NCBI GenBank assembly: GCA_963831685.1
Contig: CAWHRJ010000014.1
Coordinates: forward strand, 94,612-158,611
Source of the DNA: an uncultured Pseudomonadota bacterium
GTDB taxonomy: Bacteria; Myxococcota_A; Polyangia; Fen-1088
Direction of reading: 5' to 3'
Length of the DNA stretch: 64,000 bases
Part shown: piece after piece, positions 9,201 to 63,260 of the stretch
Layout of the letters: every line of letters starts with the position of its first letter
Position numbering within the stretch: position 1 is the first letter of the stretch
Notes under the pieces: generated by a model
Told to the model about the DNA's origin: nothing
Databases searched by the model: none
The model's input: the letters and a program-made list of their open reading frames with translations, nothing else
Program-made: the position numbers and the translations under genes

Positions 9201-10885
9201 GAAGGTCTATCCCTGGATCGCCAAGGTCCGCTACTCGACGCCGGGCGTGGGCCTGATTTCGCCGCCGCCCCACCACGACATCTACTCGATCGAGGATCTG
9301 GCGCAGCTGATTCACGACCTCAAGAACGCCAACCCGCGCGCGCGCATCAGCGTGAAGCTGGTGGCCGAGGTCGGCGTCGGGACCATCGCGGCCGGCGTCG
9401 CCAAGGCGCACGCCGATCTGGTGCTCATCAGCGGGCACGACGGCGGGACGGGCGCGTCGCCGCTCACCAGCCTCAAGCACGCCGGTGTCCCCTGGGAGCT
9501 CGGCCTGGCCGAGGCGCACCAGGTGCTGGTGCTCAACAACCTGCGCAGCCGGATCGTCGTCGAGACCGACGGGCAGCTCAAGACGGGCCGCGACGTGGTC
9601 ATCGGCGCGCTGCTTGGGCGCGGAGGAGTTCGGTTTCTCGACCGCGCCGCTGGTCGCCGTCGGTTGCGTCATGATGCGGGTCTGTCACCTCAACACCTGC
9701 CCGGTGGGCGTGGCGACGCAGGACCCCAAGCTGCGCAAGAAGTTCACCGGCAAGCCCGAGCACGTCGGTCAACTTCATGCGCTTCATCGCGCAGGAGGTG
9801 CGCGAGCTCATGGCGCAGCTCGGCTTCCGCACGATGAACGAGATGATCGGCCACACCGAGCACCTCGAGATGAAGCCGGCCGTCGACCACTGGAAGGCGC
9901 GCGGGCTCGACTTCTCGAAGATCCTCTACCAGCCGCACGCGGGCCCCGAGGTCGGGCGCTACAGGACGCTCGACCAGGATCACGCCCTCGAGCAGTCGCT
10001 GGACATGACGCACCATCCTGCCGCTCTGCGAGCCGGCCATCGCGCGCGGCGAGAAGGTCGTCGCCGACCTGCCGATTCGCAACGTCAACCGCGTCGTCGG
10101 CACGATCACCGGCAGCGAGGTGACGCGCAAGTACGGCCCGGACGGCCTGCCCGCCGACACGATCAAGCTCAAGTTCCACGGCTCGGCCGGCCAGAGCTTC
10201 GGCGGCGTTCATCCCGCGCGGCATGACGCTGACGCTGGAGGGCGACGCCAACGACTACGTCGGCAAGGGTCTGTCGGGCGGCACGGTCGTCGTCTATCCG
10301 CCGAAGGAAGCCACCTTCGTCGCCGAGGAGAACATCCTCATCGGCAACGTCGCGCTCTACGGCGCGACGAGCGGCGAGGCCTTCTTCCGCGGCGTCGCCG
10401 GCGAACGGTTCGCCGTGCGCAACAGCGGCGCCGCGCCGGTCGTCGAGGGCGTGGGCGACCACGGCTGCGAGTACATGACCGGCGGCCGCGTCGTCATCCT
10501 CGGCGGCCACGGGCCGCAACTTCGCGGCCGGCATGTCGGGCGGCGTCGCCTACGTCCTCGACGAGAGCGCAGACCTTCGCCACGCACTGCAACAAGGAGA
10601 TGGTCGGCCTCGGCAAGCTCAAGTGAGGATCCCGAGGAGGCCAAGCTGGTCCACGGGCTCATCCTGCGCCACGCGCGAGCGACACGGGCAGCAAGCGCGC
10701 CGCGGAGATCGGCGCCAACTGGAAGCAGGTGCTGCCGTTCTTCGTGCGCGTGATGCCCAACGACTACAAGCGCGTGCTCGAAGCGCAGAAGAAGATGCTC
10801 GAGACCGGTCTCTCGCAGGAGGAGGCCGAGATGGCCGCCTTCGAGCTGAACTCACAGGACACTCGCGCGCCTCGGTGGCAAGTAG
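6259..10885 (+). CDS. gltB: Glutamate synthase large subunit; intact for about 1120 codons, then interrupted by at least 6 frameshifts in the C-terminal third
   Basis: N-terminal amidotransferase ([16 protein letters not shown], catalytic Cys after the initiator region), FMN and Fe-S regions, and a C-terminal GXGXG beta-helix. From about 9610 onward the homology continues in alternating frames (ORFs 9485.., 9777.., 10120.., 10223..). Expected end is ...LGGK* at 10883-10885. The start was placed at ATG 6259 ([11 protein letters not shown]...). Confidence 0.75.
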
Positions 10886-10902
10886 AAGAGAAGACATTTC
10901 GA

Positions 10903-12395
10903 ATGGGAAAGCTGACCGGCTTCATGGAGTACGAGCGGCAGCAGCCGCCGGATCGCAGATCCGCAAGCTGCGCGTGCGCGACTGGAACGAGTTCCACGAC
11001 CACCTCCCCGAGACGACGCTGCAAGGAGCAAGGGCGCGCGCTGCATGGACTGCGGCGTTCCCTTCTGTCACACGGGGACGGTGCTGGCGGGCGGCGCCTC
11101 GGGCTGCCCGATCAACAACCTGATCCCGGAGTGGAACGACCTCGTCTACCGCGGCCAGTGGCGCGAGGCGCTCACGCGGCTGCACAAGACCAACAACTTC
11201 CCCGAGTTCACCGGGCGCGTCTGTCCGGCGCCCTGCGAGGGCTCGTGCGTGCTCGGCATCAACGAGCCGGCGGTCACCATCAAGAGCATCGAGTTCGCCA
11301 TCATCGACAAGGGCTTCGAAGAGGGGTGGGTCGTTGCCGAGCCGCCGCTCGAAGCGCACCGGCAAGACGGTCGCCGTCGTCGGCTCGGGCCCGGCCGGGC
11401 TCGCCTGCGCGGCGCAGCTCAACCGCGCCGGCCACACGGTGACGGTGTTCGAGCGCGACGACCGCATCGGCGGCCTGCTGATGTACGGCATCCCGCCCAT
11501 GAAGCTGGAGAAGCACGTCGTCGACCGGCGCGTCAAGCTGCTCGCCGAGGAGGGCGTCGAAGTTCGTGACCGAACGCGTGGATCGGCAAGAACTACCCGA
11601 CGGAGAAGCTGCGCACCTGGCTTCGACGCCATCGTCCTCGCGGGCGGCGCCACGCGGCGCGCGACCTGCCCGGTCGAGGGGCGCAATCTCTCGGGCGTCC
11701 ACTTCGCCATGGAGTTCCTGCTCAAGAGCTGCAAGAGCCTGCTCGACAGCAACTTCGCCGACGGCCAGTACATCGGCGCCAAGGGCAAGAACGTCATCGT
11801 CATCGGCGGCGGCGACACCGGCACCGACTGCGTCGGCACGTCGCTGCGCCACGGGTGCAAGAGCCTGGTGCAGTTCGAGATCCTGCCGCGCCCGCCGACG
11901 CTGCGCGCCGCGGACAACCCCTGGCCGCAGTGGCCGCGCGTCTACAAGATCGACTACGGGCAGGAGGAAGCGGCGGCCTTGTTCGGCGCCGACCCACGCA
12001 CGTACGTGACGGTGACCAAGGGCCTGGTCGGTGACTCCGCCGGCAACGTGAAGGAGCTGCACACCGTCGAGGTCGAGTGGGTGAAGAACGGCGACGGCCG
12101 GCTCAACATGAAGGAGAAGCCCGGGACCGAACGCGCCTGGCCGGCGGAGCTGGTGCTGCTGGCGATGGGCTTCGTCGGTCCCGAGAAGGCGGGCCTGCTC
12201 GGCGACTTGGGCGTCGCGCTCGATCCGCGCGGCAACGTCGCCGTCGACGGTGAGAAGGCGACCAGCGTCCCCGGCGTGTTCGCCGCCGGCGACATGTCGC
12301 GCGGCCAGTCGCTGATCGTCTGGGCCATTGCTGAAGGTCGCGCCGCCGCACAGGGCGTCGACCGCTACTTGATGGGCGAGACGTTACTGCCGTAG
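10903..12395 (+). CDS. gltD: Glutamate synthase small (NADPH) subunit; multiple frameshifts
   Basis: Starts [12 protein letters not shown], the conserved GltD N-terminus. Fe-S Cys cluster (CPAPCEGSC) and FAD/NAD GXGXXG motifs ([21 protein letters not shown]) are present. Homology jumps between three frames (ORFs 10729.., 11045.., 11334.., 11566..). Confidence 0.75.
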
Positions 12396-12695
12396 CGCCA
12401 CTCACGCTTCTTGGAAGGGCGCGCGGGCGCGGGCCCATCGAGCTGCTGGCCGCCCACCGATGCCGTGACCAGGGGACGGCGCTCCGAATCGAGCGCGCAA
12501 TCAAGCGGTTGTCTCGCTCCGAAAAACTGGAAGCGGCGGCCGACGGACGACGCTGGGCGGCGATCGCTCGCCGCGCCCGCACGCAGACACACCTCAGGCG
12601 ATAGCGCCCGACATGTGGCTGTTAATCCTCCCGATTTGTTTCGGTCTTATCATTTGTGCGCGCAACGGGAATTTACCAGCGCTATCGTGCGCAGC

Positions 12696-15500
12696 ATGAA
12701 GCTCTCCCGTTGCTTAGGTGTATCGGCGGTCGTTTTGGGGCTCATCGTCGGCGGATGCGCTGGTGTGAAGCAGATGCCCGGCGGCACCGGCAGCGGCGGC
12801 AGTGGCAACGGCAAGGGCGGGAGCAACGGCAGCGGCGGTAGCCACGGGAACATCGACGCATCGGTCGACCTCCCGTCGACGATCGGCACGACGTGCGGCA
12901 ACGGCCAGCTCGACGACGGCGAGAAGTGCGACGACGGCAACAAGAACGGCGGCGACGGCTGCACGCCGCTGTGCCAGATCGAGAACGGCTGGATCTGCCC
13001 CGACGGCCCCGGGAACCCCTGCAAGCGCAACGCGATCTGCGGCGACGGAAAGCTGACGCCGCCCGAGGCGTGCGACGACGGGAACATGACCAACGGCGAC
13101 GGCTGCTCGAGCGATTGCAAGATGATCGAGACCGGCTGGCGCTGCCCGGTGCCCGGAAGGGCCTGCATCCCGATCTGCGGCGACAACGTGATCGAGGGGA
13201 GCGAGACCTGCGACGACGGGAACACGACCGCCGGCGACGGTTGCTCGCCGACCTGTCAGGCGGAGCCCGGCGCCAGCTGCCCGACGAGCAACAACAAACC
13301 CACCAACGGAAAATGCACCATTGCCGTCTGCGGCGACGGCATGGTGGGCGCCGGCGAGTCCTGTGACTGCGGCACCGATCCGACGAAGCTCCCCTCGGGC
13401 TGCACCGGACCCAACGGCCTCTTCAACGGCGACGGGACCGGCTGCTCGAAGACCTGCACTCAAGAACCGAAGTGCCGCGACTCCTCGGGCAAGACGGGCG
13501 CCTGCTCGACGACCTGCGGGAACGGCAACATCGAGCCGGGCGAGGAGTGCGACGACGGCAACGGGGTCAGCGGCGATGGCTGCTCGAGCAGCTGCAAGAA
13601 GGAGGACGGCTTCAGCTGCGAGACCAAGCAGAAGTCGGACGCTCAGGACTGCGTGCAAGGCCTCAATCAAGGCGAGCAGTGCCTCGAGCTGCCGGTCAAG
13701 TACCGCGACTTCAAGAACGAGAGCGTCTCCGGCGGTCATCCCGACTTCTTCTTCTATGGCGCCTCGATCCCGAACCCGATCACGGTCAACTCGATCACCC
13801 ACGGGAGCATCTCGTTCAAGCAGCGCTACTGCGTCCCCAACTCGGCGGGCCCCGCGCGCAAGAACGACTCGACCGCCCGCTGCTGGGATCTGGCCCAGGC
13901 GAACCTGGACGCGAACGGCCGGCCGGCCTTCAACAGCTCGCGCACGGGCGGTACGACCTGCGACTGCCAGTTCACCGACTGGAGCCACAACGGCGGCAGC
14001 AACAACATCGTCCCCGGTTACGGCGACGCGACCTCGGCGGGGCGTCCGCTCAGCGGCATCGCGTACGTCAACTCGGGCAACGCCCTCGGCTCCCCCTGGT
14101 ACCAGGGCCCGGCGCCCGTCGTGAGCGGCACCGGGACCACGTTCGGCCAGTGGTGGGCCGACGGGACATACGAAAGTGATGGGTCGACGGCCAACAAGCA
14201 CGCCATCGGCATCCTCGAGCTCGGCCCGGTGACAGGCGGCACGGCGACGAACCTCTACCGGTTCTCGAGCGCGCCGCACAGCGTGTGGGGTGGCTTCTAC
14301 CCGCTCGATCCGACCGCCAACAACTTCCCGATCTACTCGCTGACCGGCAGCTCCAGCGGGCCGGGGACGGTGAAGACGTCGGCGGCGGCCTGGTCCGAGC
14401 CGCTGCTCTGCAACATCTGGCCGTACTGGTACAGCTCGTCTGGGTTCGGCGCGGGCAACGGCTGCATGGCCACCCAGTACGTCTTCGCGCCCGCCTATGG
14501 CCCCACCATCACCTCCGATCCGGGGGCCTGGTTCGGGATGAACATCAACGGCGGCAACATCACGAACGCGCAGGGCTGGTACCACGACTCGTGGTTCTCC
14601 GTCGAGGCGCGCTACCTGTTCGCCTTCACCGGGGCGTTCGACCTGCAGTTCTTCGGCGACGACGACACGTTCGTGTTCGTCAACGGCGTCCTGATGATCG
14701 ACCTCGGCGGCGTCCACCAGCGGCTGCCGGGCAAGGTGCACGTGAACGCCGACGGCAGCGCCACGACCCAGGAGGGCGGCAACATCTACATGGCCTGCTC
14801 GGGCTCGACGAACTGCCCGGTGATCCCGGCCGGCTCCCAGGTGGGCGACATCGTCCCCTGCACCGGCGCCGATCCGGTGACCAACGTGAAGTTCAACTCG
14901 ACCTGCAAGAGCGGCACGACCTGTGACTGCCGGACGCGCACCTTCACGGCGGGCCAGACAGGTCTGACGCCGCCCACGGCGGCGAACGCGCCGGCCAACA
15001 CCTACGAGATCGCGGTGTTCACCCGGGACGGCCACCCGACGGAGTCGAACTTCCAGCTGACTCTGAGCGGATTCGGTACGAACCAGACGCAGTGCGGTCC
15101 CACCTGCGGCGACGGGGTCAAGACCGGCGGCGAGGAGTGCGACTGTGGCAATTCGGGCACGACGGGGCAGGACGCCTCCTGCAACGGCATGAACAACGAC
15201 GACAACGCCTACAACGGCTGCACGACCTCGTGCACCTACGGACCGTTCTGCGGTGACGGCACGACAAACGGCCCCGAGCAGTGCGACGACGGCAACAACA
15301 ACGGGGTGCCGTACACGCAAAAGTGCAACAGCGGCGGCTGCAGCGCGACCTGCACGTACCCGAGCTGCTGCGGCGACGGCGTCGTCGACGCCGATGAGGG
15401 CGAGCAGTGCGATCTGGGCAACAACAACGGACCGAACTCGGCCTGTTCGACCACCTGCCAGCTTCAGATCTGCATCGAGAACTGCAACAAGGGCGGCTAG
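12696..15500 (+). CDS. Large secreted lipoprotein with multiple Myxococcales Cys-rich repeats and a PA14-like domain
   Basis: Lipoprotein signal MKLSRCLGVSAVVLGLIVGGC. At least 8 repeats of the CGDG.-x-GE.CDDGN..GDGCS..C type at both ends. Central FTGAFDLQFFGDDDTFVFVNGVLMIDLGGVHQ matches a PA14 signature. Start chosen at the internal ATG preceded by an AT-rich leader. Confidence 0.8.
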   Translation: MKLSRCLGVSAVVLGLIVGGCAGVKQMPGGTGSGGSGNGKGGSNGSGGSHGNIDASVDLPSTIGTTCGNGQLDDGEKCDDGNKNGGDGCTPLCQIENGWICPDGPGNPCKRNAICGDGKLTPPEACDDGNMTNGDGCSSDCKMIETGWRCPVPGRACIPICGDNVIEGSETCDDGNTTAGDGCSPTCQAEPGASCPTSNNKPTNGKCTIAVCGDGMVGAGESCDCGTDPTKLPSGCTGPNGLFNGDGTGCSKTCTQEPKCRDSSGKTGACSTTCGNGNIEPGEECDDGNGVSGDGCSSSCKKEDGFSCETKQKSDAQDCVQGLNQGEQCLELPVKYRDFKNESVSGGHPDFFFYGASIPNPITVNSITHGSISFKQRYCVPNSAGPARKNDSTARCWDLAQANLDANGRPAFNSSRTGGTTCDCQFTDWSHNGGSNNIVPGYGDATSAGRPLSGIAYVNSGNALGSPWYQGPAPVVSGTGTTFGQWWADGTYESDGSTANKHAIGILELGPVTGGTATNLYRFSSAPHSVWGGFYPLDPTANNFPIYSLTGSSSGPGTVKTSAAAWSEPLLCNIWPYWYSSSGFGAGNGCMATQYVFAPAYGPTITSDPGAWFGMNINGGNITNAQGWYHDSWFSVEARYLFAFTGAFDLQFFGDDDTFVFVNGVLMIDLGGVHQRLPGKVHVNADGSATTQEGGNIYMACSGSTNCPVIPAGSQVGDIVPCTGADPVTNVKFNSTCKSGTTCDCRTRTFTAGQTGLTPPTAANAPANTYEIAVFTRDGHPTESNFQLTLSGFGTNQTQCGPTCGDGVKTGGEECDCGNSGTTGQDASCNGMNNDDNAYNGCTTSCTYGPFCGDGTTNGPEQCDDGNNNGVPYTQKCNSGGCSATCTYPSCCGDGVVDADEGEQCDLGNNNGPNSACSTTCQLQICIENCNKGG

Positions 15501-41325: not shown

Positions 41326-42852
41326 ATGCGCGCCTCGCCTTTAAAGCGCGCCCTTGCGACCCACGGCGCCGGCGCCGCGACGGTAGCGCTGCTCGTTGCG
41401 TTCCTCGTTGTGTTGGTTCCGCTCGGGGGCGAGGCGCGCGCCAACAATGGCGTTCCTGGATCGCTGGGGGTCCTGTTGCCGCTCGACAAACCCCAGGAGA
41501 TCGGGCTGGCGACGACCTTCGGGCTCATCCTTTCGGACGACGGCGGGACGACCTGGAACTGGACCTGCGAGCAGGCCGCCACCTCGATGGCCGACGTCTA
41601 TGTGGTCGGGCCGCCGCCCCTCGATCGCTTCTTCGCCCGATCGCGATCGCTCGGAACCGGGCTCGGGTATTCCGACGACGAGTCGTGCGGCTGGCGGTCG
41701 TCGGGCGGCGCGCTCGCCGGCCTCACGATCTCCGACTTCTTTCCCGACGCGTCGGATCCGATGCACGTGCTCGCGGCGGCGGCGCCGCCGGTCGACGGGG
41801 GGGGGACCGGGGCCGTCTCGGTCTTCGCCTCGACCGATGGCGGCACGACCTTCGGCGCGACGCCGCTCTACACCGCCGCCGCCGGCGCGGCGATCGTCGG
41901 CATCGAGATCGCGCGCGGCGATCCGCGGATCATCTACCTCACCACCTACACCGTCGGCAGCGCCGGTTACGACCCGGTGCTGATGCGCTCCGTCGACGGC
42001 GGCGGCAGCTGGACGTCGACCGATCTGCTGGCGCCGCTCGGCCCGGCCGTCGTGCGGATCCTGGCTGTTGATCAGGCCGACGCCAACGTGGTCTACCTGC
42101 GCGCCACCGGCTCTATCAGCGAGACGCTGGCCGTGACCCGCGACGGCGGAATGACATTCGCCACGCCGCTCATCATCGCCAACGGCGCGGTCAGCGCGTT
42201 CGCTCGCCTGGCGAGCGGCACGGTCCTGGTCGGCGCGCTCGTCAACTTCGCGGGGGACGGCGGCGGCACCATGGGCGCGGGGTATCGCTCCACCGACGGC
42301 GGGAGGAGCTTCCAGACCTGGACGCTCCAGCCGCAACCCCACCTGGTCGGCCTCGGCGAGCGCGTCGTGAACGGACAGTCGACGCTCTATCTGTCGGGCA
42401 AGAACTACAGCGACGGGTGGGCACTGGCGGCGTCGACCGACGAAGGGGCCACCGTGACGTCGGTGATGCGCTACGACCAGGTGGCCGGGATCAGGGCGTG
42501 CGTCCAGCAGATCTGCCGCGACACCTGCAACTACGAGGAGCAGCAGGCGATCTGGGATCCGGGCGTCTGCACCGCCGGCGACGCCGGGGCGCCCGACGCG
42601 GGACCGCCGGGACCTCCGGCCAGCTCCGGATGCCACTGCGCGGCCGGTGGCGGGGGCGGCGTGGGCAGCCCCGGCTGGACCGCCTGGCTGTTGATTGGCG
42701 CCACATTTTGCCGGCGCGGCCGGCGGCCCGGGCGACGCGCCCCCGTTGACCCCCACTCGTCCGACGGTGGTTCGCCTCGACAGTGGAGGATCCGCGGTGT
42801 AAATTCCCCCCCTCTTTGTACACGGCGTTTCCGTGCAAGGCTGGGCCCATAG
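41326..42852 (+). CDS. Secreted BNR/sialidase-like repeat protein with a MYXO-CTERM-like tail; 3' end uncertain
   Basis: At least 4 BNR-type motifs (STDGGTTF, SVDGGGSW, TRDGGMTF, STDGGRSF). C-terminal Cys-Gly-rich segment, a hydrophobic helix, then an Arg cluster (GCHCAAGGGGGVG...WLLIGATFCRRGRR), typical of the MYXO-CTERM sorting signal. The ORF reads through into the tRNA gene, so the true stop is probably earlier (around 42735) and lost to a frame error. Confidence 0.6.
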   Translation: MRASPLKRALATHGAGAATVALLVAFLVVLVPLGGEARANNGVPGSLGVLLPLDKPQEIGLATTFGLILSDDGGTTWNWTCEQAATSMADVYVVGPPPLDRFFARSRSLGTGLGYSDDESCGWRSSGGALAGLTISDFFPDASDPMHVLAAAAPPVDGGGTGAVSVFASTDGGTTFGATPLYTAAAGAAIVGIEIARGDPRIIYLTTYTVGSAGYDPVLMRSVDGGGSWTSTDLLAPLGPAVVRILAVDQADANVVYLRATGSISETLAVTRDGGMTFATPLIIANGAVSAFARLASGTVLVGALVNFAGDGGGTMGAGYRSTDGGRSFQTWTLQPQPHLVGLGERVVNGQSTLYLSGKNYSDGWALAASTDEGATVTSVMRYDQVAGIRACVQQICRDTCNYEEQQAIWDPGVCTAGDAGAPDAGPPGPPASSGCHCAAGGGGGVGSPGWTAWLLIGATFCRRGRRPGRRAPVDPHSSDGGSPRQWRIRGVNSPPLCTRRFRARLGP

Positions 42853-42915
42853 CTCAGCGGTCAGAGCTGGCGGCTCATAACCGCCTGGTCCCTGGTTCGA
42901 ATCCAGGTGGGCCCA
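42843..42915 (+). tRNA. tRNA with anticodon CAU (elongator Met or lysidine-modified Ile2)
   Basis: Cloverleaf: acceptor GGGCCCA/UGGGCCC, D-arm GCUC/GAGC, anticodon stem GGCGG/CCGCC with loop CUCAUAA, T-arm CCUGG-UUCGAAU-CCAGG. The G1-C72 pair argues against an initiator. CCA is not encoded. Confidence 0.9.
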
Positions 42916-43744: not shown

Positions 43745-44140
43745 GCTTCTCGCTCGAGCCGGTGAGGTGGTCGCGGCGGGCCCTTCGGGCGCCCGTCGAG
43801 GAAAGTCCGGGCTCCGCAGGGCAGGGTGCTGGCTAACGGCCAGTCGGGGTGACTCGAAGGACAGTGCAACAGAAAATAGACCGCCGGTTCGCAAGGGCCG
43901 GTAAGGGTGAAACGGCGCGGTAAGAGCGCACCGCCCCCTCGGTGACGAGGGGGGCACGGCAAACCCCACCTGGAGCAAGACCAGTCCGAGATCGCGGGGC
44001 AACCCGCCGGCGTGGCCCGCGTCGATTCGATCTCGAGTTGGTCGCACGAGCCGTCCGGCAACGGGCGGCCCAGAGGAATGACCACCACCGGCGGCAACGC
44101 CGGGACAGAACCCGGCTTACGGCCGGCTCGAGCGAGAGGC
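43745..44140 (+). ncRNA. rnpB: RNase P RNA, bacterial type A
   Basis: Universal P4 strands GAGGAAAGUCCGGGCUCC and ACAGAACCCGGCUUA. Conserved GGUAACGCC-like, AGUGCAACAGAAA, GGUAAGGGUGAAA and GGUAAGAGCGCACC modules. A P1 helix pairs 43747-43763 with 44121-44137. Confidence 0.85.
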
Positions 44141-53129: not shown

Positions 53130-53286
53130 GAGGGGCCGGAGTCTAGCAGCCCGCGCACGCGCTGGGGCCGATGGCGGCCTGCCACCTACACGTCTGAAGC
53201 CGAACGCCGTCCGTAGTCACTAAGCCGGAGGGGCTCGAGCGTTCTCGACGAGCCCCCGTTCCATTCGTCATCAGCCGGAGGTGTTC

Positions 53287-54639
53287 ATGCGTTTTCGTGG
53301 ATTCGTCGCAGTCGTTGCCTTGTCGGTCATCCCGCTCGCTCTGGGATGCGCTCAATCGGAGATGGGTCCGGGGTCGGTAGGCACCGGAGGGACGACGACG
53401 TCGTCGACGGGCACCGGCGGTTCCGCGACCGGGCGCGGCGGCGCTTCGGCCACCGGCGGCTCTTCGGCGACCGGCGGCGCGCCGGCGACGGGCGGCGCGC
53501 CGGCCACTGGCGGTTCGACCGGCTCGACCGGCGCCGGCGGCGCGGTGGCGACCGGCGGCGTGGTGACGACGGGCGGTTCGACCGGCCAGGGCGGCGCGCC
53601 GACGACGGGCGGTTCGACCGGCCAGGGCGGCGCGGTGACGACGGGCGGTTCGACTGGACAGGCCGGCGCTCCGGCGACTGGCGGCCACGGCGGCGCTCCG
53701 GCGACAGGTGGCTCGACCAGCACGGGTGGCTCGTCCGCCACGGGCACCGGCGGCCACGTCTCGACCGGTGCGGCCGGCTCGTCCGCAGCGGGAACGGGCG
53801 GTCACGTTTCCGGCGGCACAGGCGGCTCGTCGACGGGTGCCGCGGGTCAGGGCTCGAGCGGCAGCGGCACGGCCGGAAGCACGTCGACCGGGACCGGCGG
53901 TAGCACGGCGACCGGCACTGGCGGCCAGACGACCACCGGCACCGGCGGCACCGGCGCGACCACCTCGACCGCGGCCGGGACGATCGTTCCGCTCTACACC
54001 GATCCGAGCGATCCCTCCTGGAACGCGATCATCACCGCCGCCGAGGCGCACCCGACCGTCCACGTCGTCGCCATCGTCAACCCGAGCGACGGCCCGGGCT
54101 CGTCGAAGAGCAGCGCCTACACGGCCGGCATCGCGGACCTACAGTCCGCCGGCATCAAGGTCATCGGCTACGTCGCCACCGGCTACGCCAGCCACAGCAT
54201 CGCCTCGATGGAGGCGGAGATGGACACCTGGAAGTCGTTCTACCCGACGCTGCAGGGGATCTTCTTCGACGAGCAGTCGAACTCCACCGGCGACGTCGCC
54301 CACTACCAGACGCTGTCGCAGTACGCGAAGAGCTTGGGGCTCAGCTACACCGTCGGCAACCCCGGGACCGGCGTCCCGACGGCCTACGTCGGCGCGGTCG
54401 ACACGATGCTGATCTACGAGAGCAACGGAATCCCGCCGATCTCCGATCTGTCGGCCTACTCGGCCTACGCGCCGTCGAACTTCGGCGTCATCCCCTACGC
54501 CGTCTCGTCGATGAGCTCGACGTTCGTCCAGCAGGCCCGGCAATACGTCGCGTACATCTACCTGACCAACGACGACCTGCCGAACCCCTGGGACAGCCTG
54601 ACGTCGTACTTCTCGCAGCTGCTCGGCGCGCTCGAATAG
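53287..54639 (+). CDS. Lipoprotein with a long Gly/Thr/Ser-rich linker and a C-terminal spherulin-4-like (GH135-like) domain
   Basis: Lipobox LALGC. About 220 aa of TGG(S/A) low complexity encoded by 39-bp tandem repeats. The C-terminal 200 aa (IVPLYTDPSDPSWNAI...VAIVNPSDGPG) resemble the spherulation-specific family 4 / Sph3-like fold. Confidence 0.65.
   Translation: MRFRGFVAVVALSVIPLALGCAQSEMGPGSVGTGGTTTSSTGTGGSATGRGGASATGGSSATGGAPATGGAPATGGSTGSTGAGGAVATGGVVTTGGSTGQGGAPTTGGSTGQGGAVTTGGSTGQAGAPATGGHGGAPATGGSTSTGGSSATGTGGHVSTGAAGSSAAGTGGHVSGGTGGSSTGAAGQGSSGSGTAGSTSTGTGGSTATGTGGQTTTGTGGTGATTSTAAGTIVPLYTDPSDPSWNAIITAAEAHPTVHVVAIVNPSDGPGSSKSSAYTAGIADLQSAGIKVIGYVATGYASHSIASMEAEMDTWKSFYPTLQGIFFDEQSNSTGDVAHYQTLSQYAKSLGLSYTVGNPGTGVPTAYVGAVDTMLIYESNGIPPISDLSAYSAYAPSNFGVIPYAVSSMSSTFVQQARQYVAYIYLTNDDLPNPWDSLTSYFSQLLGALE
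53567..53690. repeat. About three 39-bp in-frame tandem repeats (encoding TGGSTGQGGAP/VTT) in the lipoprotein linker
   Basis: Near-identical repeats of GGCGGTTCGACCGGCCAGGGCGGCGCG-CGACGACGGGC. Confidence 0.7.
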
Positions 54640-55514: not shown

Positions 55515-56246
55515 TCAGAGCTTCATCGAGAGCTCGACGCGCGCCGTGCCGCCGTCGGTGACCTTGACGGTCGCGGTCGTGCGGACGCCGGCGCCGGTGC
55601 CGTCGGCCGGCTCGTGCCAGAGCTCGAGAACGTGATCGCCGGGCGGGACGCCCTTGATCGTGAAGCTGCCGTCGGCGCCGGTGACGGCGAAGTAGGGGTG
55701 GTCGAAGACGTAGATCCAGCCGTTCATCCAGGCGTGCCCCGCGTCGCACTGGAGCTTCATGAGCCCCGGCTTGCGCATCGGGACCGGGACCTTCTGCCCC
55801 TTGATCGGCATCGCCACGTTGAACACGGTCATGTCCGAGGCGTTGGCGTGGATGTTGTGCAGGATCGCGTCGTTGTTCATGAGCGAAAGCGGCGTCCCGA
55901 CGGTGAGCGCTTGGACATGCGGCGCGTAGCGGCACTGCTTCTGATCGAGCGCCGCGCCGGCCACCGGCGACGGTTTGCCGTCGAAGTGCGCGTCCTTGAC
56001 GAACACGACGACGTTGCGCAGGCAGCCCCCCTTGCCGACGACGACCGACTCATTGGGCGCGTCGTGGCCGCAGGTGGGGGCGTCCTTGGTGACGGCGTGG
56101 GGGGCGAGCTTGGGCGCCGGTCCATCGAGGTGAACGACCCCGCTGACCGTGCCGTTGGCGAAGGCGGGCGTTCCGCAGGCGAGCAGCGCCACGCCCGCTG
56201 CCAGCGCGGCGATAGGCCTAGCTGTTTCCCTTGGGCTCTTCGTCAT
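55515..56246 (-). CDS. Lipoprotein with a cupredoxin-like type-1 copper site and a carboxypeptidase-regulatory-like domain
   Basis: Lipobox LLAC. Candidate copper ligands H...C-DAG-H-AW-M (ILHNIH...QCDAGHAWM). C-terminal DGSFTIKGVPPGDHVLELW beta-sandwich. Confidence 0.5.
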   Translation of the reverse strand: MTKSPRETARPIAALAAGVALLACGTPAFANGTVSGVVHLDGPAPKLAPHAVTKDAPTCGHDAPNESVVVGKGGCLRNVVVFVKDAHFDGKPSPVAGAALDQKQCRYAPHVQALTVGTPLSLMNNDAILHNIHANASDMTVFNVAMPIKGQKVPVPMRKPGLMKLQCDAGHAWMNGWIYVFDHPYFAVTGADGSFTIKGVPPGDHVLELWHEPADGTGAGVRTTATVKVTDGGTARVELSMKL

Positions 56247-56652
56247 CGGAGAGATAAGCGAACGTGCGGACCAGGTTGACGATCTGCTCGCGCTGCTCGG
56301 CGGAGAGGTCGACGAACTGCACGCCCATGCCGGGATTGATGTTGTCGTAGCTCCCGGGTCGGAACGGGTTCACCCACATCACGCGCCCCTCGAGATCGAG
56401 CCGGGGGCCGCCGGGCGGCGCGAAGCTCAGGTTGAGCTTGGTTCCGGGTGGCTCGGGCGCGTTGGTCCGGATGAAGATCCCCATCGCGCTGATGTCGGTG
56501 ATGTACGCGAACAGGAAGTTGTCGGCGCTCTTGTAGTCGACCTCGATGTCGACGGTGACGCGGGTATGGACGCGGCGATCGCGCCCGCTGCTTCGCCGAT
56601 CGGAGGTGACCGTGACCTCACGCCTTCGCCGATCTTTCCCTCGCCGCGTCAT
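56218..56652 (-). CDS. PilZ-domain protein (putative c-di-GMP receptor)
   Basis: 144 aa. An Arg-rich RxxxR-type stretch (DRRRREVTVTSDRR...RDRRVHTR) followed by DISAMGIF (a D/NxSxxG-type motif) on a beta-barrel core. Sits 14 bp downstream of the GT-C glycosyltransferase gene. Confidence 0.65.
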   Translation of the reverse strand: MTRRGKDRRRREVTVTSDRRSSGRDRRVHTRVTVDIEVDYKSADNFLFAYITDISAMGIFIRTNAPEPPGTKLNLSFAPPGGPRLDLEGRVMWVNPFRPGSYDNINPGMGVQFVDLSAEQREQIVNLVRTFAYLSDDEEPKGNS

Positions 56653-56666
56653 CCTGGAAGCGCAGT

Positions 56667-58992
56667 CTACTTTATTTCGAGCTGGCCGATACGGACGCGA
56701 TCCTGGCCGTCGTTGGGGCCGTCGGTGATCTTGAGCCGCTTCCCCTCGCCGCCGGGCCAGAATCCCATGTAGACGACGTAGGTCCCGGCCGGCGTGGTCA
56801 TCAGCGGCACGTCGGTGTCGTAGTGGTCGTGGACGTACTCGCCCGGCAGCCAGTAGCTGGTGCCGAAGGCGTGGTTGACCGGATCGTGGTCGCCGATCAC
56901 CCGCGGCGCCGCCGGACCGTCGAAGTGGACGAAGATCTTGTAGCCGCCGGGCGGCTTGGCCTTCATGCGGAAGTAGAGGTCGAGCGGGATCTTCCCCGGG
57001 CGCCGCACCTCGGGCGGGAAGCTGGCGCCCACCAGCTCGATCGCGTTCTCGAACGTCGCCGCGAGAGGGATGCGCCAGGTCCAGGGGGGCTTGGCGTCGG
57101 CGGCGCCGGGGCGGCATCCAGACGTCTTTGAGCAACGGGTTCTGATCGCGCTCGCCCGGATCGAGCTGGTTGGTGAGGAGCAGGAAGCGCGACGACGATG
57201 CGTCGACGATGTAGTAGCCGAGCTGCGCCTGCTTGAACGCCGAATCGAGCGGCGCCAGCTCGCTGGCCGCCACCAGCGCGAACACCCGCTGCGGATCGCG
57301 CAAGAACGCGACGACCCGATCCTGGTTCGGCAGGTCGACCAGGTTCTCCTTGCTGTAGAAGGTCGACCCGTGCCCCTCGACGCGGTAGCGCCCGATCTTC
57401 TCGCCGTGCTTGGCGAACCTGGCGTACGACTCGAGCACCGGCTTGAACGACAGGTGCGTCGACAGCGCGGGCACGATCGCCTGCGACAGATAGAAGGCGA
57501 AGAAGATCGCGCAGGCGACCGCCCCCTGCAGACCGTAGCGCCCGAACACGGTCACGGCCCGCACGAGCCCCTGGCGCACGCGACCCCCGGGCGGCGCCTC
57601 CCGGGCGGGGACGCGGCCCAGCGCACGCGGCCGCACGGCCAGCCCGGCGTAGACACCCATCGCGGCCAGGAGCCCGATCGCCAGGATCAGCTCCCCCACC
57701 GCGATGTTCGTCGGCCAGTGCACCTTTTCAAATAGATGGACCGAGGCCAGGTCCTCGGGCGCGAGATAGAAGTCACGCGCGACGACCATCGTCCCGGTCG
57801 CCATCAGGAGACCGGCCACCGGCTCGGGCCGCAGCCCCTCCAGCGCCTCATCGAGAAAGGCGCCGATCGCCAGCGCGATGGCGGGGAGCGCCTCGTAGCG
57901 CGCCTGGCCGAGCACGATGTCCCGGTAGCTCGAGAGCGCGTAGCCCATTCCGGCGAAGAGGAGGAGGTAGAGCTCGACGAAAGCGAGTCGCGGGTTGGTG
58001 CGCGGCACGCCCGCCTCGTCGCCGTCGAGCCGGATGAGCGGCCGGGCCAGCGCGAAGACGGCCACCGCGCTCCAGGGGAAGAGGCCGAAGCCGAGCTCGC
58101 GCACCAGCGCCTCGAAGCTGTGCGCCGGCGCGCCGCTCTTCGGGACTCCCCCCACCAGCCAGGAGTACTTGCCCGCCACGACGTGGAAGAGGCCGCCCGC
58201 GAGCACCGCGACGCCGAGCACGGCGAGGATCGCCAGCGGGACGAAACCGCGCGCGCCCGGTCGCCAGGTGCTCGCGCCCAGCGTCCCCTCGGCCGCGATG
58301 TCGGGGCCGAGGCCTGGCTCGGCCAGTGGCGCCGTGCCGTCATCGATCGCGGCGGTCGGCAGGGCGCGTAGGCCGCGCCCAACCACCAGCGCCAAGGTCA
58401 GCGCCAAGAGCGGCAGCACCAGCCCCGACATCGCGCCCCCGGCCAGGAGACCAATGGCGAGCCCGACGACCCCAAGCACCAGATCGCGGACGCGGCGGCG
58501 GCCGTCGGGCGGCCAGGCGTAGCGCCCGAGCGCGCCCAGAACCAGCGCCAGCCCCGCGATGAGCGGCGCGTCCGAGGTCAGCTGTCGCGCCTCGAGCACG
58601 AACAGCGGCGTCGTTCCCAGCGCCAGCACGGCGAGCAGGCCGGCGCGCTTGCGCAGCAGACCCGCGCCCGCCCAGTAGATCGCCATCAGCGCAACGATCG
58701 CCGAGAGGGCGAAGAAGAGCCGGGCGCCCAGCTCGCTGGCGCCGAAGATGCGGATGCCGAGCGCCGCCATCGAGAGCTCGAGCGGCGGCCGCGCCGCGTA
58801 CTTCCCGGCGACGGTCGGATCGAACAGGCTGTCGGAGCGGGCGATGTCGCGCGCCTGCTCGGCGAGCTTCAGCTCGGAGGGGTCCCAGAAGCCCGAAGCG
58901 CCGAGCCGCGGCAGGCAGAGCGCCAGCGAGAACGCCAGCGCCCAGGCCCACATGGGGACGCGGCCGAGCGCCGCCCGCACGCGATCGATCAT
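56667..58992 (-). CDS. GT-C fold glycosyltransferase, family 39/83 (PMT/ArnT-like), with a C-terminal periplasmic domain; one frameshift near 57110
   Basis: N-terminal multi-TM domain with the conserved first periplasmic loop (GASGFWDPSELKLAEQARDI, DE-like motif), about 11 TM helices, then a soluble domain. The reading frame switches once (ORFs 56667..57032 and the 56218..59247 frame). Confidence 0.7.
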
Positions 58993-59011
58993 CGGCCCGC
59001 CATCGTCGACG

Positions 59012-60077
59012 TCACGCGCCGCCGGCGCCCGCCGTTCCGGCCCGACCGCCCGCCGCGCCCGCGGCGCCGGTCTGGTCCCCGGTGGCCCCCGCGGCGCCGG
59101 ACGCGCCGGCCGCCCCCGAAGCCCCCGCGGCGCCGGACGCACCGGCCGCGCCGCCAGCGCCAGCGGCGCCATGGCCGGCCGCGCCCGCCGCGCCGTTGCC
59201 CGCCGCGCCCGAGCTGCCGGCCGCGCCGCCGCCCTGGCCGCCGGCACCGGGCGGCGTCGGGCAATTCACGCCCGAGGCCACGCAGGTGCACTGCTGCGAG
59301 CCCTTGGCGAAGCGGATTCCGTCGTCGCAGGTGGAAGATTCCGCCGTACGGGTCGCAGTATCCGCCGCTGGCGCAGTCGCTGTTGGCGGTACAGGGGCTC
59401 CCGGCGACGAGAAGCGGCATGCAGGTGCCGGCCGCGCAGTACGAGTTGCTGTCACACGGCGCGGTGGCGCACGACGTTGGCGGGCTGCTGGTCCCCGCGG
59501 CGGTGCAGCTGGAGACGCCCGCGGTGTTCGTTGCGCAATAGAAGTTGGTCGAGCAGACGTCGCCGTTCTCGCTGCAGTGACCGGTGCCCGAGATGGTCGT
59601 GGACGTCGCACACAGATGGTGCGTCTGGTCGCAGATGACCGCTCCGTTGGTGGCTCCGGCGCAGTCGAACTGCGTCGTGCAGGTGTCCATGTCGACCATC
59701 CCCGGGCCCTGGAAGACGTACCCGCAGGCGAGGTCGATGCCGGCCTGCACGGCGGGCGTTATGATCGGGGTGCTGGCACCGTAGGCCGCGTTCAGCTTGT
59801 TGATGCAATCGTTGGTGTTGGCCGGGGTGTAGACCCGCAGGCTCGGCGCGGTGGTCGCCTTGGTCGCCAGCGCCTCGCACTGGCTCTGCTGGTAGGCGGT
59901 GCAGGTCGCTGTCGTGACGCCGCACGCCGTGGCGATCTGACAGACGGCGTTCGCGTAGTTCATGCAGAAGTCTGCGGTCGTAGAGGGTCCGCCGGAGCCG
60001 CCGCCGCTGCACCCGAGCGCGACCAACGGGAGCAGCACCGGGAACAGGGCCGTGCGCAACAACTTCGCTGGTTTCAT
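59012..60077 (-). CDS. Cys-rich lipoprotein with a Gly/Ala-rich C-terminal repeat tail; one frameshift near 59340
   Basis: Lipobox LVALGC. About 30 Cys in the first 230 aa. The C-terminal (GAAGAS)n tail is encoded by 18-bp tandem repeats at about 59090-59215. The two parts are in different frames. Confidence 0.5.
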
Positions 60078-60141: not shown

Positions 60142-61101
60142 TCAAGCGTGCATCCGCACATGCAGTGTCTGCCCATGATCGAGGATGGCTAGGCGCCGGT
60201 CGCCGTCGGGGCGGCAGAGGCCCGCGTCGCGCGCCAGGTGCTGCAGCCAGGCGAGCGGCGCGTCGAGCCTTTCGTAGCTCAAAGGGAACGATCCGTAGCT
60301 GGTGGGGATGAGGAGCCGCGCCTTCAGGTCATCAAAGGCGTAGACCGCGTCGAGCGGCGACAGGTGCTCCTCGCGGAACGGGGCCGGCTCGTAGCCGGCG
60401 ATCGGCAGGAGGGCGACATCGGGGTGAAACCGGCGGCCGATCTCGGCGAAGCCCGAAAAGTAGCCGGTGTCGCCTGCCACGTAGGCGCTGGCCGAGGCCG
60501 ACCCTGCGAACGCGCGGACCAGGTAACCGCAGGCGCCGCGGCGAAGGTAGTCGCCGAGGCCGCGCGTCCCGGAGTGGCGCACCGGCACCGCGGTCACCTC
60601 GACGTCGCCTTTGCGATAGCTTGTTCCCGGGTCGAGCTCGACGACGTCGAAGCCGAGCCCGCGCACGAGGCTGGTGCAGCGCGGGGGGACGATCAGCGTC
60701 GCCTGGCGTCCGATCCGCAGGAGGCTCTGCTTCGAGAGGTGGTCGCGGTGGGCGTGCGTGATCAGCACCAGATCGACGTCCTCGAGATCCGCGGCTGCGA
60801 TGCCGGCCGCCTGGACCCGCCGAAGCCCGTAGAAGGAATTCTCCAGCAACGGGTCGCACAGCACCCGTACGCCGGGCGTCGTGATCATGACCGTGGCGTG
60901 GCCGACGAAGGTGATCGAGATCGTCCCCTGCGGCGGGCGCGGCACCGGCGCCGCCTCGACCGGTCGGGTTCCCCGTCCCAGCCGACCGGCCGCGGCCGTC
61001 AGAAAGCGCAACGAAAGCACGCTGGGCCAGACGCTTCGCGCCCGCTTGCGGTGCTCGAAATCGAGGACGCGCGCCCTTTCCGCGGCGGAGAGCGGAGCCA
61101 T
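60142..61101 (-). CDS. Metallo-beta-lactamase-fold hydrolase
   Basis: ITHAHRDH zinc motif plus downstream His/Asp ligands. About 319 aa from the internal ATG. Confidence 0.7.
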   Translation of the reverse strand: MAPLSAAERARVLDFEHRKRARSVWPSVLSLRFLTAAAGRLGRGTRPVEAAPVPRPPQGTISITFVGHATVMITTPGVRVLCDPLLENSFYGLRRVQAAGIAAADLEDVDLVLITHAHRDHLSKQSLLRIGRQATLIVPPRCTSLVRGLGFDVVELDPGTSYRKGDVEVTAVPVRHSGTRGLGDYLRRGACGYLVRAFAGSASASAYVAGDTGYFSGFAEIGRRFHPDVALLPIAGYEPAPFREEHLSPLDAVYAFDDLKARLLIPTSYGSFPLSYERLDAPLAWLQHLARDAGLCRPDGDRRLAILDHGQTLHVRMHA

Positions 61102-61179
61102 CGGCGTTTCGGTGCGCGTCACGGTCGGATAGTAGCGCCGGTCGCGCAGAACACGGTGTTTCGTGCTAAGTGACGGCGC

Positions 61180-62550
61180 GTGACCAGCGACGCGCAGGGG
61201 GCGCCCCAGGCGGCTTCGCAGGCCGGCCGGGTGGTGATTCTCGGGGGCGGGCTGACCGGCATCTCGACCGCCGTCCACCTGCGCGCACCCTGGGTCCTCT
61301 ACGAGCGCGAGGAGCGTCTGGGCGGGCACGCGCGCACCGACGCGCGCGACGGCTGGCGCTTCGACAAGACCGGTCACTGGCTGCATCTGCGCGATCCGGG
61401 CGTCAAGCAGCTGGTCGACGAGCTGCTCCCCGGTCAGATGACGCCGGTCGCGCGGCGCGCGCGGATCTTTTCGCACGGCGTTCTGACCCGCTATCCGTAC
61501 CAGGCCAACCTGCACGGCCTGCCGCCCGAGGTGATCAAGGAGTGTCTGCTGGGCGTGATCGAGGCCAAGGTCTCATCGGCGACGGCCGGTCACGCGGCGG
61601 CGCGGGCGGCGAACTTCGAGGAGTACTGCCTCGCGCACTTCGGCGCCGGGATCTCCAAGCACTTCATGATCCCCTACAACGAGAAGATCTGGGGCGTGCA
61701 CCCGCGCGAGATCACCGCCGAGTGGTGTTCGCGCTTCGTGCCGCTGCCGAACCTCGAGCAGGTGATCGCCGGCGCCGTCGGCGCGGGGCCGCCGGAGATG
61801 GGCTACAACCAGCACTTTCTCTACCCGAAGGCGGGCGGGATCGAGACCTTCACCCGCGCGCTCACGACGCGGATGGCGGGCGGTGAGGTGCACACGCGCA
61901 CGACGCCCGACAGCGTCGACTGGCGGCGGCGCGAGGTGGTGGTCGGCGGCGAGCGGGTCCCCTACCGCGCGCTGGTGGCCACGATTCCGCTCCCCGAGCT
62001 GCTCAAGCGGATGCCGGAGCTGCCGCCGGAGATCGCGCGCGAGGCGGCGCGCCTCCGCTGCACGACGCTGCGCTATCTGAACATCGGCGCGCGCGGCAAG
62101 CCGCGGGAGGACTGGCACTGGATCTACGTCCCGGAAAGGCGATATCCGTTCTACCGGGTGAACGTCTTCTCGACCGCGATGCCCAGCATGGCCCCGGACG
62201 GCTGCTCCTCGATCTGCGTGGAGATGGGCGACCGGGGACCGATCGGCGAGGCGGCCCGGCGCGACACGATGGCGGCGCTGGTCGCGGCGGGGGCGCTCGG
62301 CTCGGCGGAAGACGTGGTGTTCGCCGAAGAGAAGCAGATCGAATATGCCTACGTCGTGTTCGACCAGAACTACTACCAGGCCACGCGGACGATCTTTGGC
62401 TTTCTCGAGGCGAACGCCATTCACCCGCGCGGGCGTTACGGGGCCTGGACCTACAACGCGATGGAGGACTGCGTGCTGGCCGGCCGCGAGGTGGCGGCCC
62501 TCATCGACGGCAGGAGCTCGCCGGACGGCGGCGCGGGGCGCGCGGCGTGA
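61180..62550 (+). CDS. FAD-dependent enzyme of the UDP-galactopyranose mutase (Glf) family
   Basis: N-terminal FAD Rossmann ([10 protein letters not shown]). Blocks resembling UGM: [25 protein letters not shown], and a C-terminal [17 protein letters not shown] parallel to the RFGxWxY...D motif of Glf. Confidence 0.6.
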
Positions 62551-63260
62551 GCGCCGGGGCGCTGCACCTCTCGGTCGTCATCCCCGTCTACAACGAGGAG
62601 GGGATCCTGCGCGGCTCGGTGCTCGAGCTCGAGGAGAAGCTGCGGCGGTTCGGCTGGAGCTACGAGCTCCTGCTGTGCGAGAACGGCTCGCGCGATCGGA
62701 CCATCGAGATCGGCAGGGAGCTGGAGATCGAGCACCCGCAGGTCCGCATGCTCTCGGTCGGCGAGCCGAACTACGGCCTGGCGATGAGGCAGGGCATCCT
62801 CGAGGCGCGCGGGACGTTCGTCATCAGCGACGAGATCGATCTGCTCGACACCGAGTTCTACGCGCGGGCGATGGCCCTGCTCGAGCGGAGCGACACCGAT
62901 CTGGTGGTCGGGTCGAAGGCGATGGTTGGGTCGAACGACCAGCGGCCGCTGTTCCGGCGGGCCGCCACCCGTTTCTACAACGGCCTTCTGCGCGCGGTCT
63001 GCCATTACCCAGGCACCGACACGCACGGCCTCAAGGCGTTCCGGCGTGAGGCGCTGCTGGAGACGGCGCGCCGCTGCGTGCTCGATCGCGACGTCTTCGC
63101 CAGCGAGTTCGTCATCCGCGCCCACCGCGAGGGGAAGAAGGTCGTCGAGATCCCCTTCGCCGTCCGCGAGAAGCGCCCCCCCTCGATCCGCCTGCTCAAG
63201 CGCGTCCCTCACGTCGTCAAGAGCGTGGCCAAGCTGGCCCTCTCCGTCCGCCGCGGGTAG
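62547..63260 (+). CDS. GT2 family glycosyltransferase, Dpm1/GtrB-like polyprenyl-phosphate sugar synthase
   Basis: [11 protein letters not shown], the DXD region (ISDEID) and conserved GSKA...[10 protein letters not shown] blocks. 237 aa with no C-terminal TM. GTG start overlaps the upstream stop (GTGA). Confidence 0.75.

Follow-up and report, generated by a model that had tools for sequence, protein, structure and literature searches.

In uncultured Polyangia, a gene for a membrane glycosyltransferase of the GT-C superfamily and a gene for a stand-alone PilZ protein were found beside each other at every informative locus compared, and this genomic association can be regarded as established. 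The pair is described here for a stretch of 64,000 nucleotides (nt), which we call the window (contig CAWHRJ010000014.1 of assembly GCA_963831685.1, positions 94,612 to 158,611 of the forward strand), from an uncultured bacterium of the GTDB lineage Myxococcota_A; Polyangia; Fen-1088. The G+C content of the window is about 69%, and the genomes nearest to it were assembled from metagenomes and carry the label Polyangia or Myxococcales. Both genes lie on the minus strand: the true stop codon of the glycosyltransferase gene (hereafter GT-C, also for its product) is at 56667-56669, and the gene for the PilZ protein of 144 amino acids (aa), at 56218-56652, begins 14 nt downstream on the same strand, as an earlier reading of the sequence (the original prediction) had correctly stated. 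That reading had also proposed that cyclic diguanosine monophosphate (c-di-GMP), the ligand of PilZ domains, is coupled to the GT-C enzyme. Our results suggest, without proving it, that the pair puts cell-surface sugar chemistry under the control of c-di-GMP.

Conservation of the GT-C/PilZ pair

A scan of species-representative genomes seeded with GT-C gave 77 loci, all from uncultured Polyangia or Myxococcales, and 61 of these were informative, meaning that the 3' end of GT-C was present together with at least 250 nt beyond it. PilZ was located directly downstream on the same strand in 59 of the 61, nearby on the opposite strand in two, and was absent from none. The metagenome scan seeded with PilZ gave 80 loci, 68 of them informative, with GT-C directly upstream on the same strand in 61 and adjacent but convergent in the other seven. 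Adjacency in 61/61 and 68/68 loci, obtained from two independent search directions, is far beyond chance. Across orthologous loci, usually 1 to 95 nt separate the GT-C stop from the PilZ start, and many loci have a gap of 2 nt. Furthermore, the most divergent GT-C (33% identity), used as a query, led to additional subfamilies of about 700 to 860 aa. Five divergent proteins from these were examined, and a PilZ gene was found immediately downstream in all five, amid unrelated flanks and in one case as two PilZ genes. A generic PMT/PMT_2 outgroup of 560 aa has no PilZ neighbour. The pair persists down to about 30% GT-C identity and has so far been seen in uncultured Polyangia only. The co-occurrence in related genomes that the original prediction proposed to check was thus found in all those examined, including the divergent GT-C subfamilies and a subclade with inverted PilZ.

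The PilZ partners all belong to a single orthologous lineage, marked by the signature FLFAYITD[ILM]SAMGIF, NPGMG and LVRTFAYL, and they are better conserved than GT-C (for example, 61% versus 33% identity in locus L076). The genes for a family 2 glycosyltransferase (GT2), an oxidase, a metallo-beta-lactamase (MBL)-fold hydrolase and a lipoprotein accompany the pair in the closer clade only; one distant-clade locus keeps the MBL gene alone. Because the adjacency survives both the inversion of PilZ and the turnover of every neighbour, it points to a functional link and not to inherited gene order alone, and on these comparative grounds there is good support for a dedicated link that joins this lineage of PilZ to this lineage of GT-C. 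One could still suppose that the gene order has simply been inherited and that PilZ has an unrelated role, for instance in motility or polarity; myxobacteria have many PilZ paralogues (24 in Myxococcus xanthus), and all of the GT-C/PilZ loci come from one class. We give this explanation very little weight, since the adjacency is complete in both scans over a range of GT-C identity reaching down to about 30% and amid unrelated flanks, and since the pair outlasts the inversion of PilZ and shows stop-start gaps down to 1-2 nt.

In the inverted subclade (L030, L054, L149, L155, L157, L159, L160, L161 and L165), PilZ stands tail-to-tail with GT-C, so that the neighbourhood is retained though co-transcription is lost; in L030 a gene for a lipoprotein rich in Gly, Ser and Thr lies between GT-C and the inverted PilZ. 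Two loci of the clade with GT-C of about 860 aa (L171 and L172, both at 6800-7647) have two PilZ genes after GT-C, the first a divergent one with a long acidic tail and the second the orthologue of the window protein.

The PilZ protein and its ligand-binding motifs

The 144-aa protein passes the profile thresholds for PilZ, as had been expected of it: the Pfam model (PF07238) scored 66.6 bits against a cut-off of 22.5 over residues 25-128, and the NCBIfam model TIGR02266, which describes a myxobacterial paralogous family of PilZ type, scored 80.6 bits against a cut-off of 68.7. The orthologues, which number more than 1000, are labelled 'TIGR02266 family protein' at NCBI. No second PilZ protein of this family was found elsewhere in the window. 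Both motifs named in the original prediction are present. RxxxR is R27-V-H-T-R31, preceded by R26 (RRVHTR), and DxSxxG is D53-I-S55-A-M-G58 (DISAMG). RxxxR and [D/N]xSxxG are retained in every full-length orthologue of all clades; the D, S and G are invariant in alignment A3, and the NxSxxG form occurs in the clade with GT-C of about 860 aa, including the second PilZ of L171 and L172. Motifs kept this uniformly suggest that ligand binding is under selection, and, judging from its sequence, the window protein most likely binds c-di-GMP through RRxxxR and DxSxxG.

The N-terminus is rich in arginine and disordered, and the C-terminus carries an invariant acidic tail, TFAYLSDD. Three spaced DRR motifs are found in residues 1-31 (56560-56652), namely D7RR, D18RR and D25RR, of which only the last belongs to the canonical switch; D7RR and D18RR are largely kept in most clades, and extra contacts with the nucleotide, membrane binding or partner binding are possible roles. 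The AlphaFold2 model has a barrel of six strands (35-38, 49-52, 58-62, 72-78, 85-95 and 108-114), a C-terminal helix (118-132) and disordered termini. The top Foldseek matches of the model are all PilZ proteins.

By sequence and by fold alike, the non-binding Xanthomonas proteins XAC1133/XC1028 (28-30% identity) come nearest among the solved structures, ahead of the c-di-GMP-binding PilZ domains of Alg44, PA4608, MotI and YcgR. The kinship to XAC1133/XC1028 counts against c-di-GMP control of the pair and favours a different explanation, in which PilZ is a c-di-GMP-independent partner of GT-C, that is, a factor for its assembly, stability or localisation, like XAC1133 or PlpA of M. xanthus. XAC1133 binds PilB and FimX without binding nucleotide, and PlpA has the same motifs as the window protein yet fails to bind c-di-GMP in vitro (PMC8316039), which is a caveat on binding by the window protein. 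However, proteins of the XAC1133 type have lost both RxxxR and DxSxxG (10.1101/814665), whereas both are kept in all full-length orthologues of the window protein. The alignment with XAC1133 sets in only at residue 46 and pairs DISAMG of the window protein with PFVKSGG. Assignment of the window protein to the non-binding xPilZ type (PA2960/XAC1133) was considered and rejected, both motifs being present. A c-di-GMP-independent role is thus unlikely in our view, but it keeps a real chance of being correct.

The glycosyltransferase, its interrupted gene and the surrounding locus

The pair belongs to a minus-strand run of tightly spaced genes, from 61122 down to 55515, that codes for an MBL-fold hydrolase, a lipoprotein, GT-C, PilZ and a secreted protein. 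The features of the locus are as follows; transmembrane (TM) helices and periplasmic domains are predictions, and GC3 denotes the G+C content at third codon positions.

60142-61122, minus strand: gene for an MBL-fold hydrolase of 326 aa, which opens the same-strand run
59012-60077, minus strand: gene for a Cys-rich lipoprotein with a Gly/Ala/Ser-rich tail, immediately upstream of GT-C
57110-58992, minus strand: 5' part of GT-C, with 13 predicted TM helices, the W36-D37-P38-x-E40 loop after the first helix and an alpha/beta domain placed in the periplasm
57105-57115, minus strand: frameshift site in GT-C, from blastn alignments to relatives
56667-57109, minus strand: 3' part of GT-C in the shifted frame, a linker and a C-terminal beta-sandwich placed in the periplasm (GC3 frame plot, translation, tblastn)
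56653-56666, minus strand: spacer of 14 nt that separates the stop codon of GT-C from the ATG of PilZ
56218-56652, minus strand: gene for the stand-alone PilZ protein of 144 aa (Pfam PilZ, TIGR02266, orthologue alignments, AlphaFold2 model)
55515-56246, minus strand: gene for a secreted protein of 243 aa, overlapping the 3' end of PilZ by 29 nt and kept among the closest relatives only
61180-62550, plus strand: gene like those for flavin adenine dinucleotide (FAD)-dependent amine oxidases, divergent from the minus-strand run
62547-63260, plus strand: gene for a GT2 protein of 237 aa resembling polyprenyl-phosphate sugar synthases, divergent from the minus-strand run

A promoter and terminator scan showed no promoter-like or terminator-like site in the 14-nt spacer. 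A GT-C gene of PMT_2 type does start at 58992, at the edge of the region named in the original prediction (56218-58992), but that reading overlooked that this gene is not one intact open reading frame (ORF) in the window. In the GC3 frame plot the coding frame changes at 57109/57110, and the length of the interval 56667-58992, 2326 nt, is not divisible by 3. Compared with the aligned relatives (blastn; L082, L027, L084, L010, L085, L001, L083 and L003, seven of them shown), two nucleotides (GG) are missing at the frameshift site: the window has GCCGCC--CCGGCG and the relatives have GCCGCCGGCCGG. Over this stretch L027 does not differ from L082, nor L003 from L083. The tblastn alignment with the L082 orthologue likewise splits into two frames here. 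The frame-corrected protein of 774 aa matches homologues of about 775 aa from end to end (up to 95% identity, 100% coverage), and only this corrected version aligns with them over the full length.

The raw sequence gives instead a read-through ORF of 1009 aa (56218-59247), which runs out of frame for about 150 codons before it enters the frame of PilZ. This ORF as a single fusion gene was ruled out by the GC3 plot, the homologues and the DNA alignments, which show the 2-nt gap and read-through in the wrong frame. A second frameshift lies near 59339 in the lipoprotein gene, where one extra A is present (GGCGGAATCTTCC versus GGCGGA-TCTTCC in five relatives), and a gene like that for the small subunit of glutamate synthase (gltD-like, 10533-12395, plus strand) is broken across at least three or four frames; one of its fragments ends in ...GWVVAEPP. 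The GC3 frame-switch scan of the whole window, which is noisy in that the two strands mirror each other, flagged the GT-C site and the gltD-like gene. Since the gltD-like and lipoprotein genes are frame-broken as well, the assembly appears to be prone to indels, and the frameshift in GT-C is most likely an assembly error. Alternatively, the module might be decaying in this genome, with GT-C and the upstream lipoprotein gene as true pseudogenes; two frameshifts do lie in adjacent genes of one operon, and the shifted GT-C frame is open right to the PilZ stop. However, the broken gltD-like gene of the window is a housekeeping gene, and its division among several frames points to the assembly, and the aligned relatives have intact genes at both frameshift sites. 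Decay is therefore very improbable. Its variant, a read-through fusion of the TM part of GT-C with PilZ, is far less likely again, as the read-through segment would replace a strongly conserved domain with an Arg-rich out-of-frame sequence.

The GT-C protein matched PMT_2 (PF13231) with 49 bits against a threshold of 26.1. The more specific label GT39/83 of the original prediction holds at the level of the superfamily only: the score for the GT39 family PMT (PF02366) was 19.6 bits and thus below the threshold of 22.7, although some homologues have a precomputed match to this model, and the ArnT equivalog model NF009784 gave 27.4 bits against a cut-off of 567, so that the protein is no ArnT orthologue. 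Its fold is ArnT-like. The A1 sequence-profile search matched ArnT (5EZM, E 8e-7), and the AlphaFold2 model (predicted template modelling score 0.66) matched ArnT 5F15/5EZM in Foldseek (E 1.5e-10, probability 1.0). The stretch W36-D37-P38-x-E40 is aligned by the profile onto the P54-D55-E56 loop of ArnT. D37-P38 is invariant in both alignments, outgroup included, W36 is nearly invariant, and E40, which is invariant in A1, is placed opposite E56, next to D55. The 13 predicted TM helices begin with the N-terminus inside, and the positive-inside count is 13 (+2) K/R in short inside loops versus 2 outside; this topology assigns the acidic loop, the alpha/beta domain and the C-terminal beta-sandwich to the periplasm. 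All homologues have conserved the beta-sandwich, which resembles NPC2, the GM2-activator, CARDB and the C-terminal domain of Wzt.

As for the remaining genes of the locus, the FAD amine-oxidase-like gene, which is also PRK07208-like, overlaps by 4 nt with the gene for the 237-aa GT2 protein, which has no TM helix. A redox enzyme together with a polyprenyl-phosphate sugar synthase (61180-63260) calls to mind the DprE-type route, which leads to modified lipid-linked donors. An MBL-fold hydrolase of about 325 aa (Lactamase_B_2/B_3) also stands upstream of GT-C in one distant-clade locus (L080, 6474-7451). A Spherulin4-like lipoprotein (window 53281-54639, plus strand) has a low-complexity linker, about 200 aa long and enriched in Gly, Thr, Ser and Ala, and recurs close to the GT-C/PilZ module in L002, L004, L007, L012, L016 and L169. 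Elsewhere on the plus strand the window codes for a secreted protein of 1029 aa (12411-15500) with many Cys-rich CGDG..E.CD.GN repeats, typical of myxobacterial repeat proteins, and contains a tRNA gene (42843-42915) and a bacterial class A RNase P RNA (43755-44134, 271 bits).

Possible mechanism and comparison with known systems

The explanation of the conserved pair that we favour is a module of uncultured Polyangia in which an ArnT-like GT-C is provided with a dedicated single-domain PilZ adaptor, so that periplasmic glycosylation tracks c-di-GMP. We see about an even chance that this is correct. GT-C would most likely transfer a sugar from a polyprenyl-phosphate donor to an acceptor in the envelope, and in the clade of the window the neighbouring ArnC/DPMS-like GT2 would probably supply the lipid-linked donor. 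To judge by the gene content, a polyprenyl-phosphate sugar is the probable donor; the GT2 neighbour resembles ArnC, DPMS, GtrB and PpgS. Binding of c-di-GMP would order the Arg-rich N-terminal switch of the cytoplasmic PilZ, which might then engage the cytoplasmic face of GT-C through its C-terminal helix and the acidic TFAYLSDD tail, or might act through the step of donor supply. The activity, donor access, assembly or localisation of GT-C would thereby be changed across the membrane, and periplasmic glycosylation would follow the cellular level of c-di-GMP. Candidate acceptors are the adjacent lipoproteins with Gly/Ser/Thr-rich linkers, including the Cys-rich lipoprotein encoded upstream of GT-C. 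As the active site of GT-C is periplasmic and PilZ is cytoplasmic, gating in the manner of BcsA cannot apply, and PilZ would have to act by allostery across the membrane or by controlled recruitment instead of gating the active site. In its narrower form, in which c-di-GMP-loaded PilZ docks on the cytoplasmic face of GT-C and switches periplasmic glycosyl transfer on or off, the proposal is tentative, and we hold it to be more doubtful than the module as such; the binding of c-di-GMP, the contact with GT-C, the direction of regulation, and the identities of donor and acceptor are what we only infer.

A different target is conceivable, with PilZ sensing c-di-GMP but acting on another step of the pathway (the cytoplasmic GT2, a flippase or the export of the acceptor) and GT-C being merely the genomic anchor. 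Cytoplasmic steps are topologically within reach of PilZ, and the ArnC/DPMS-like GT2 is encoded 3.5 kb away in the clade of the window. However, the GT2/oxidase pair is gone from the distant-clade neighbourhoods while GT-C and PilZ stay together, and GT-C alone is invariably adjacent. Such a target is therefore improbable, slightly more so than the c-di-GMP-independent partner discussed above.

Several observations, besides the kinship to XAC1133, weigh against c-di-GMP control of GT-C. The active site of GT-C and PilZ are on opposite sides of the membrane. Both AlphaFold2 models are of moderate confidence: the overall predicted local distance difference test score (pLDDT) is 64 for PilZ (about 79-87 in the core) and 70 for GT-C. 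In the window, a regular-expression scan found no motif of GGDEF or EAL type, and no riboswitch or other regulatory RNA was found above the Rfam thresholds. Among the top 120 word-index matches and the best 150 of 9370 profile matches there was no fusion of PilZ with GT-C; the long proteins among those 150 are multi-PilZ, PilZ-Hsp70 and PilZ-DnaJ proteins. Finally, the cytoplasmic loop 205-249 of GT-C (45 residues, with an invariant DDGT in the close clade and a pLDDT of 76-91) was considered as a general docking site for PilZ and rejected, for the clades of L058/L061, L076 and the GT-C of about 860 aa do not have this loop and yet have PilZ. It is the sole sizeable conserved cytoplasmic loop, and thus no docking site can be named.

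To our knowledge, partners are known for only a minority of stand-alone PilZ proteins. Of the 24 PilZ proteins of M. xanthus, 14 are single-domain, and only 4 of the 24 deletion mutants had a motility or development phenotype. The gene order described here points to a specific and unusual candidate partner. Furthermore, the c-di-GMP-controlled glycan enzymes that we know of act in the cytoplasm, and GT-C enzymes act in the periplasm with lipid-linked donors. If the proposed coupling is true, it needs signalling across the membrane and widens the range of envelope modifications under c-di-GMP control, which beside the GT-2/GT-4 synthases of the cytoplasm would take in lipid-linked glycosylation in the periplasm; GT-C would then be the first glycosyltransferase of its superfamily controlled by a second messenger, in an ancient and dedicated module of Polyangia. 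The coupling can be tested with two recombinant proteins even though the hosts are uncultured. No published pairing of PilZ with GT-C was found in literature searches on PilZ with GT-C, mannosyltransferase, ArnT or TIGR02266 and on c-di-GMP with GT-C; the 'ArnT' matches that were checked concerned Per/Arnt/Sim and were irrelevant. The original prediction of a new regulatory pairing is thus partly supported, in that a dedicated pair is well supported and no precedent was found in print; a BcsA-style gate is excluded by the topology. The logic of a PilZ receptor with a surface-glycan enzyme is known, as is the type of adaptor (MapZ); the combination of PilZ with GT-C appears to be new, as we did not find it in the literature.

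The closest parallels in logic are BcsA, which has a C-terminal PilZ domain, and Alg44/Alg8. In these, as in the window, a PilZ with canonical motifs is genetically tied to a membrane glycosyltransferase, and c-di-GMP presumably sets the output of surface glycan. However, BcsA and Alg8/Alg44 are processive GT-2 systems that use nucleotide sugars at a cytoplasmic active site with PilZ beside it (the gating loop of BcsA), whereas the window codes for a GT-C with a periplasmic active site and a predicted lipid-linked donor, and for a separate 144-aa PilZ across the membrane. Across the loci compared, PilZ is neither fused with a GT-2 synthase nor always next to one.

As an adaptor, the window protein resembles MapZ/PA4608 of Pseudomonas aeruginosa, which acts with CheR1; both are stand-alone PilZ proteins with a flexible Arg-rich N-terminus and a C-terminal helix, and the C-terminal region of single-domain PilZ adaptors mediates partner binding (10.1101/814665). 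The partner of MapZ is a soluble methyltransferase that is not encoded alongside it, whereas the candidate partner here is an integral membrane GT-C encoded immediately upstream, and the window protein has in addition the invariant acidic tail and the three DRR motifs. XAC1133/XC1028 (PA2960 type), the closest solved relative, is also a small adaptor that binds a partner protein (the N-terminal domain of PilB, FimX), but the window protein has both motifs and is not encoded in a type IV pilus context.

On the side of the enzyme, GT-C is comparable to ArnT (GT83) and to the lipid-linked systems ArnC/ArnT, GtrB/GtrC, PpgS/Rv3779 and Ppm1/Pmt, with its ArnT-like fold, the acidic loop after the first TM helix, the periplasmic C-terminal domain and, in the clade of the window, an ArnC/DPMS-like GT2 nearby. 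It is not orthologous to ArnT, has an extra C-terminal beta-sandwich, and differs from the known lipid-linked periplasmic systems, ArnT included, in that none of those has a second-messenger receptor attached. Compared with GtrA/B/C-type systems, a GT2 stands beside GT-C in the closer clade only, no flippase was identified in the comparison, and the distant-clade neighbourhoods are without either. A precedent for cross-membrane influence on a GT-C enzyme is mycobacterial AftD, to the cytoplasmic face of which the small acidic acyl carrier protein (ACP) binds, and in which disruption of this binding reorders the periplasmic active-site loop (10.1101/2019.12.22.885152). The docking proposed for PilZ would be similar, but ACP is not a nucleotide receptor, AftD belongs to another GT-C family, and gene adjacency is not involved there, whereas it is the adjacency of the two genes that characterises the pair in Polyangia.

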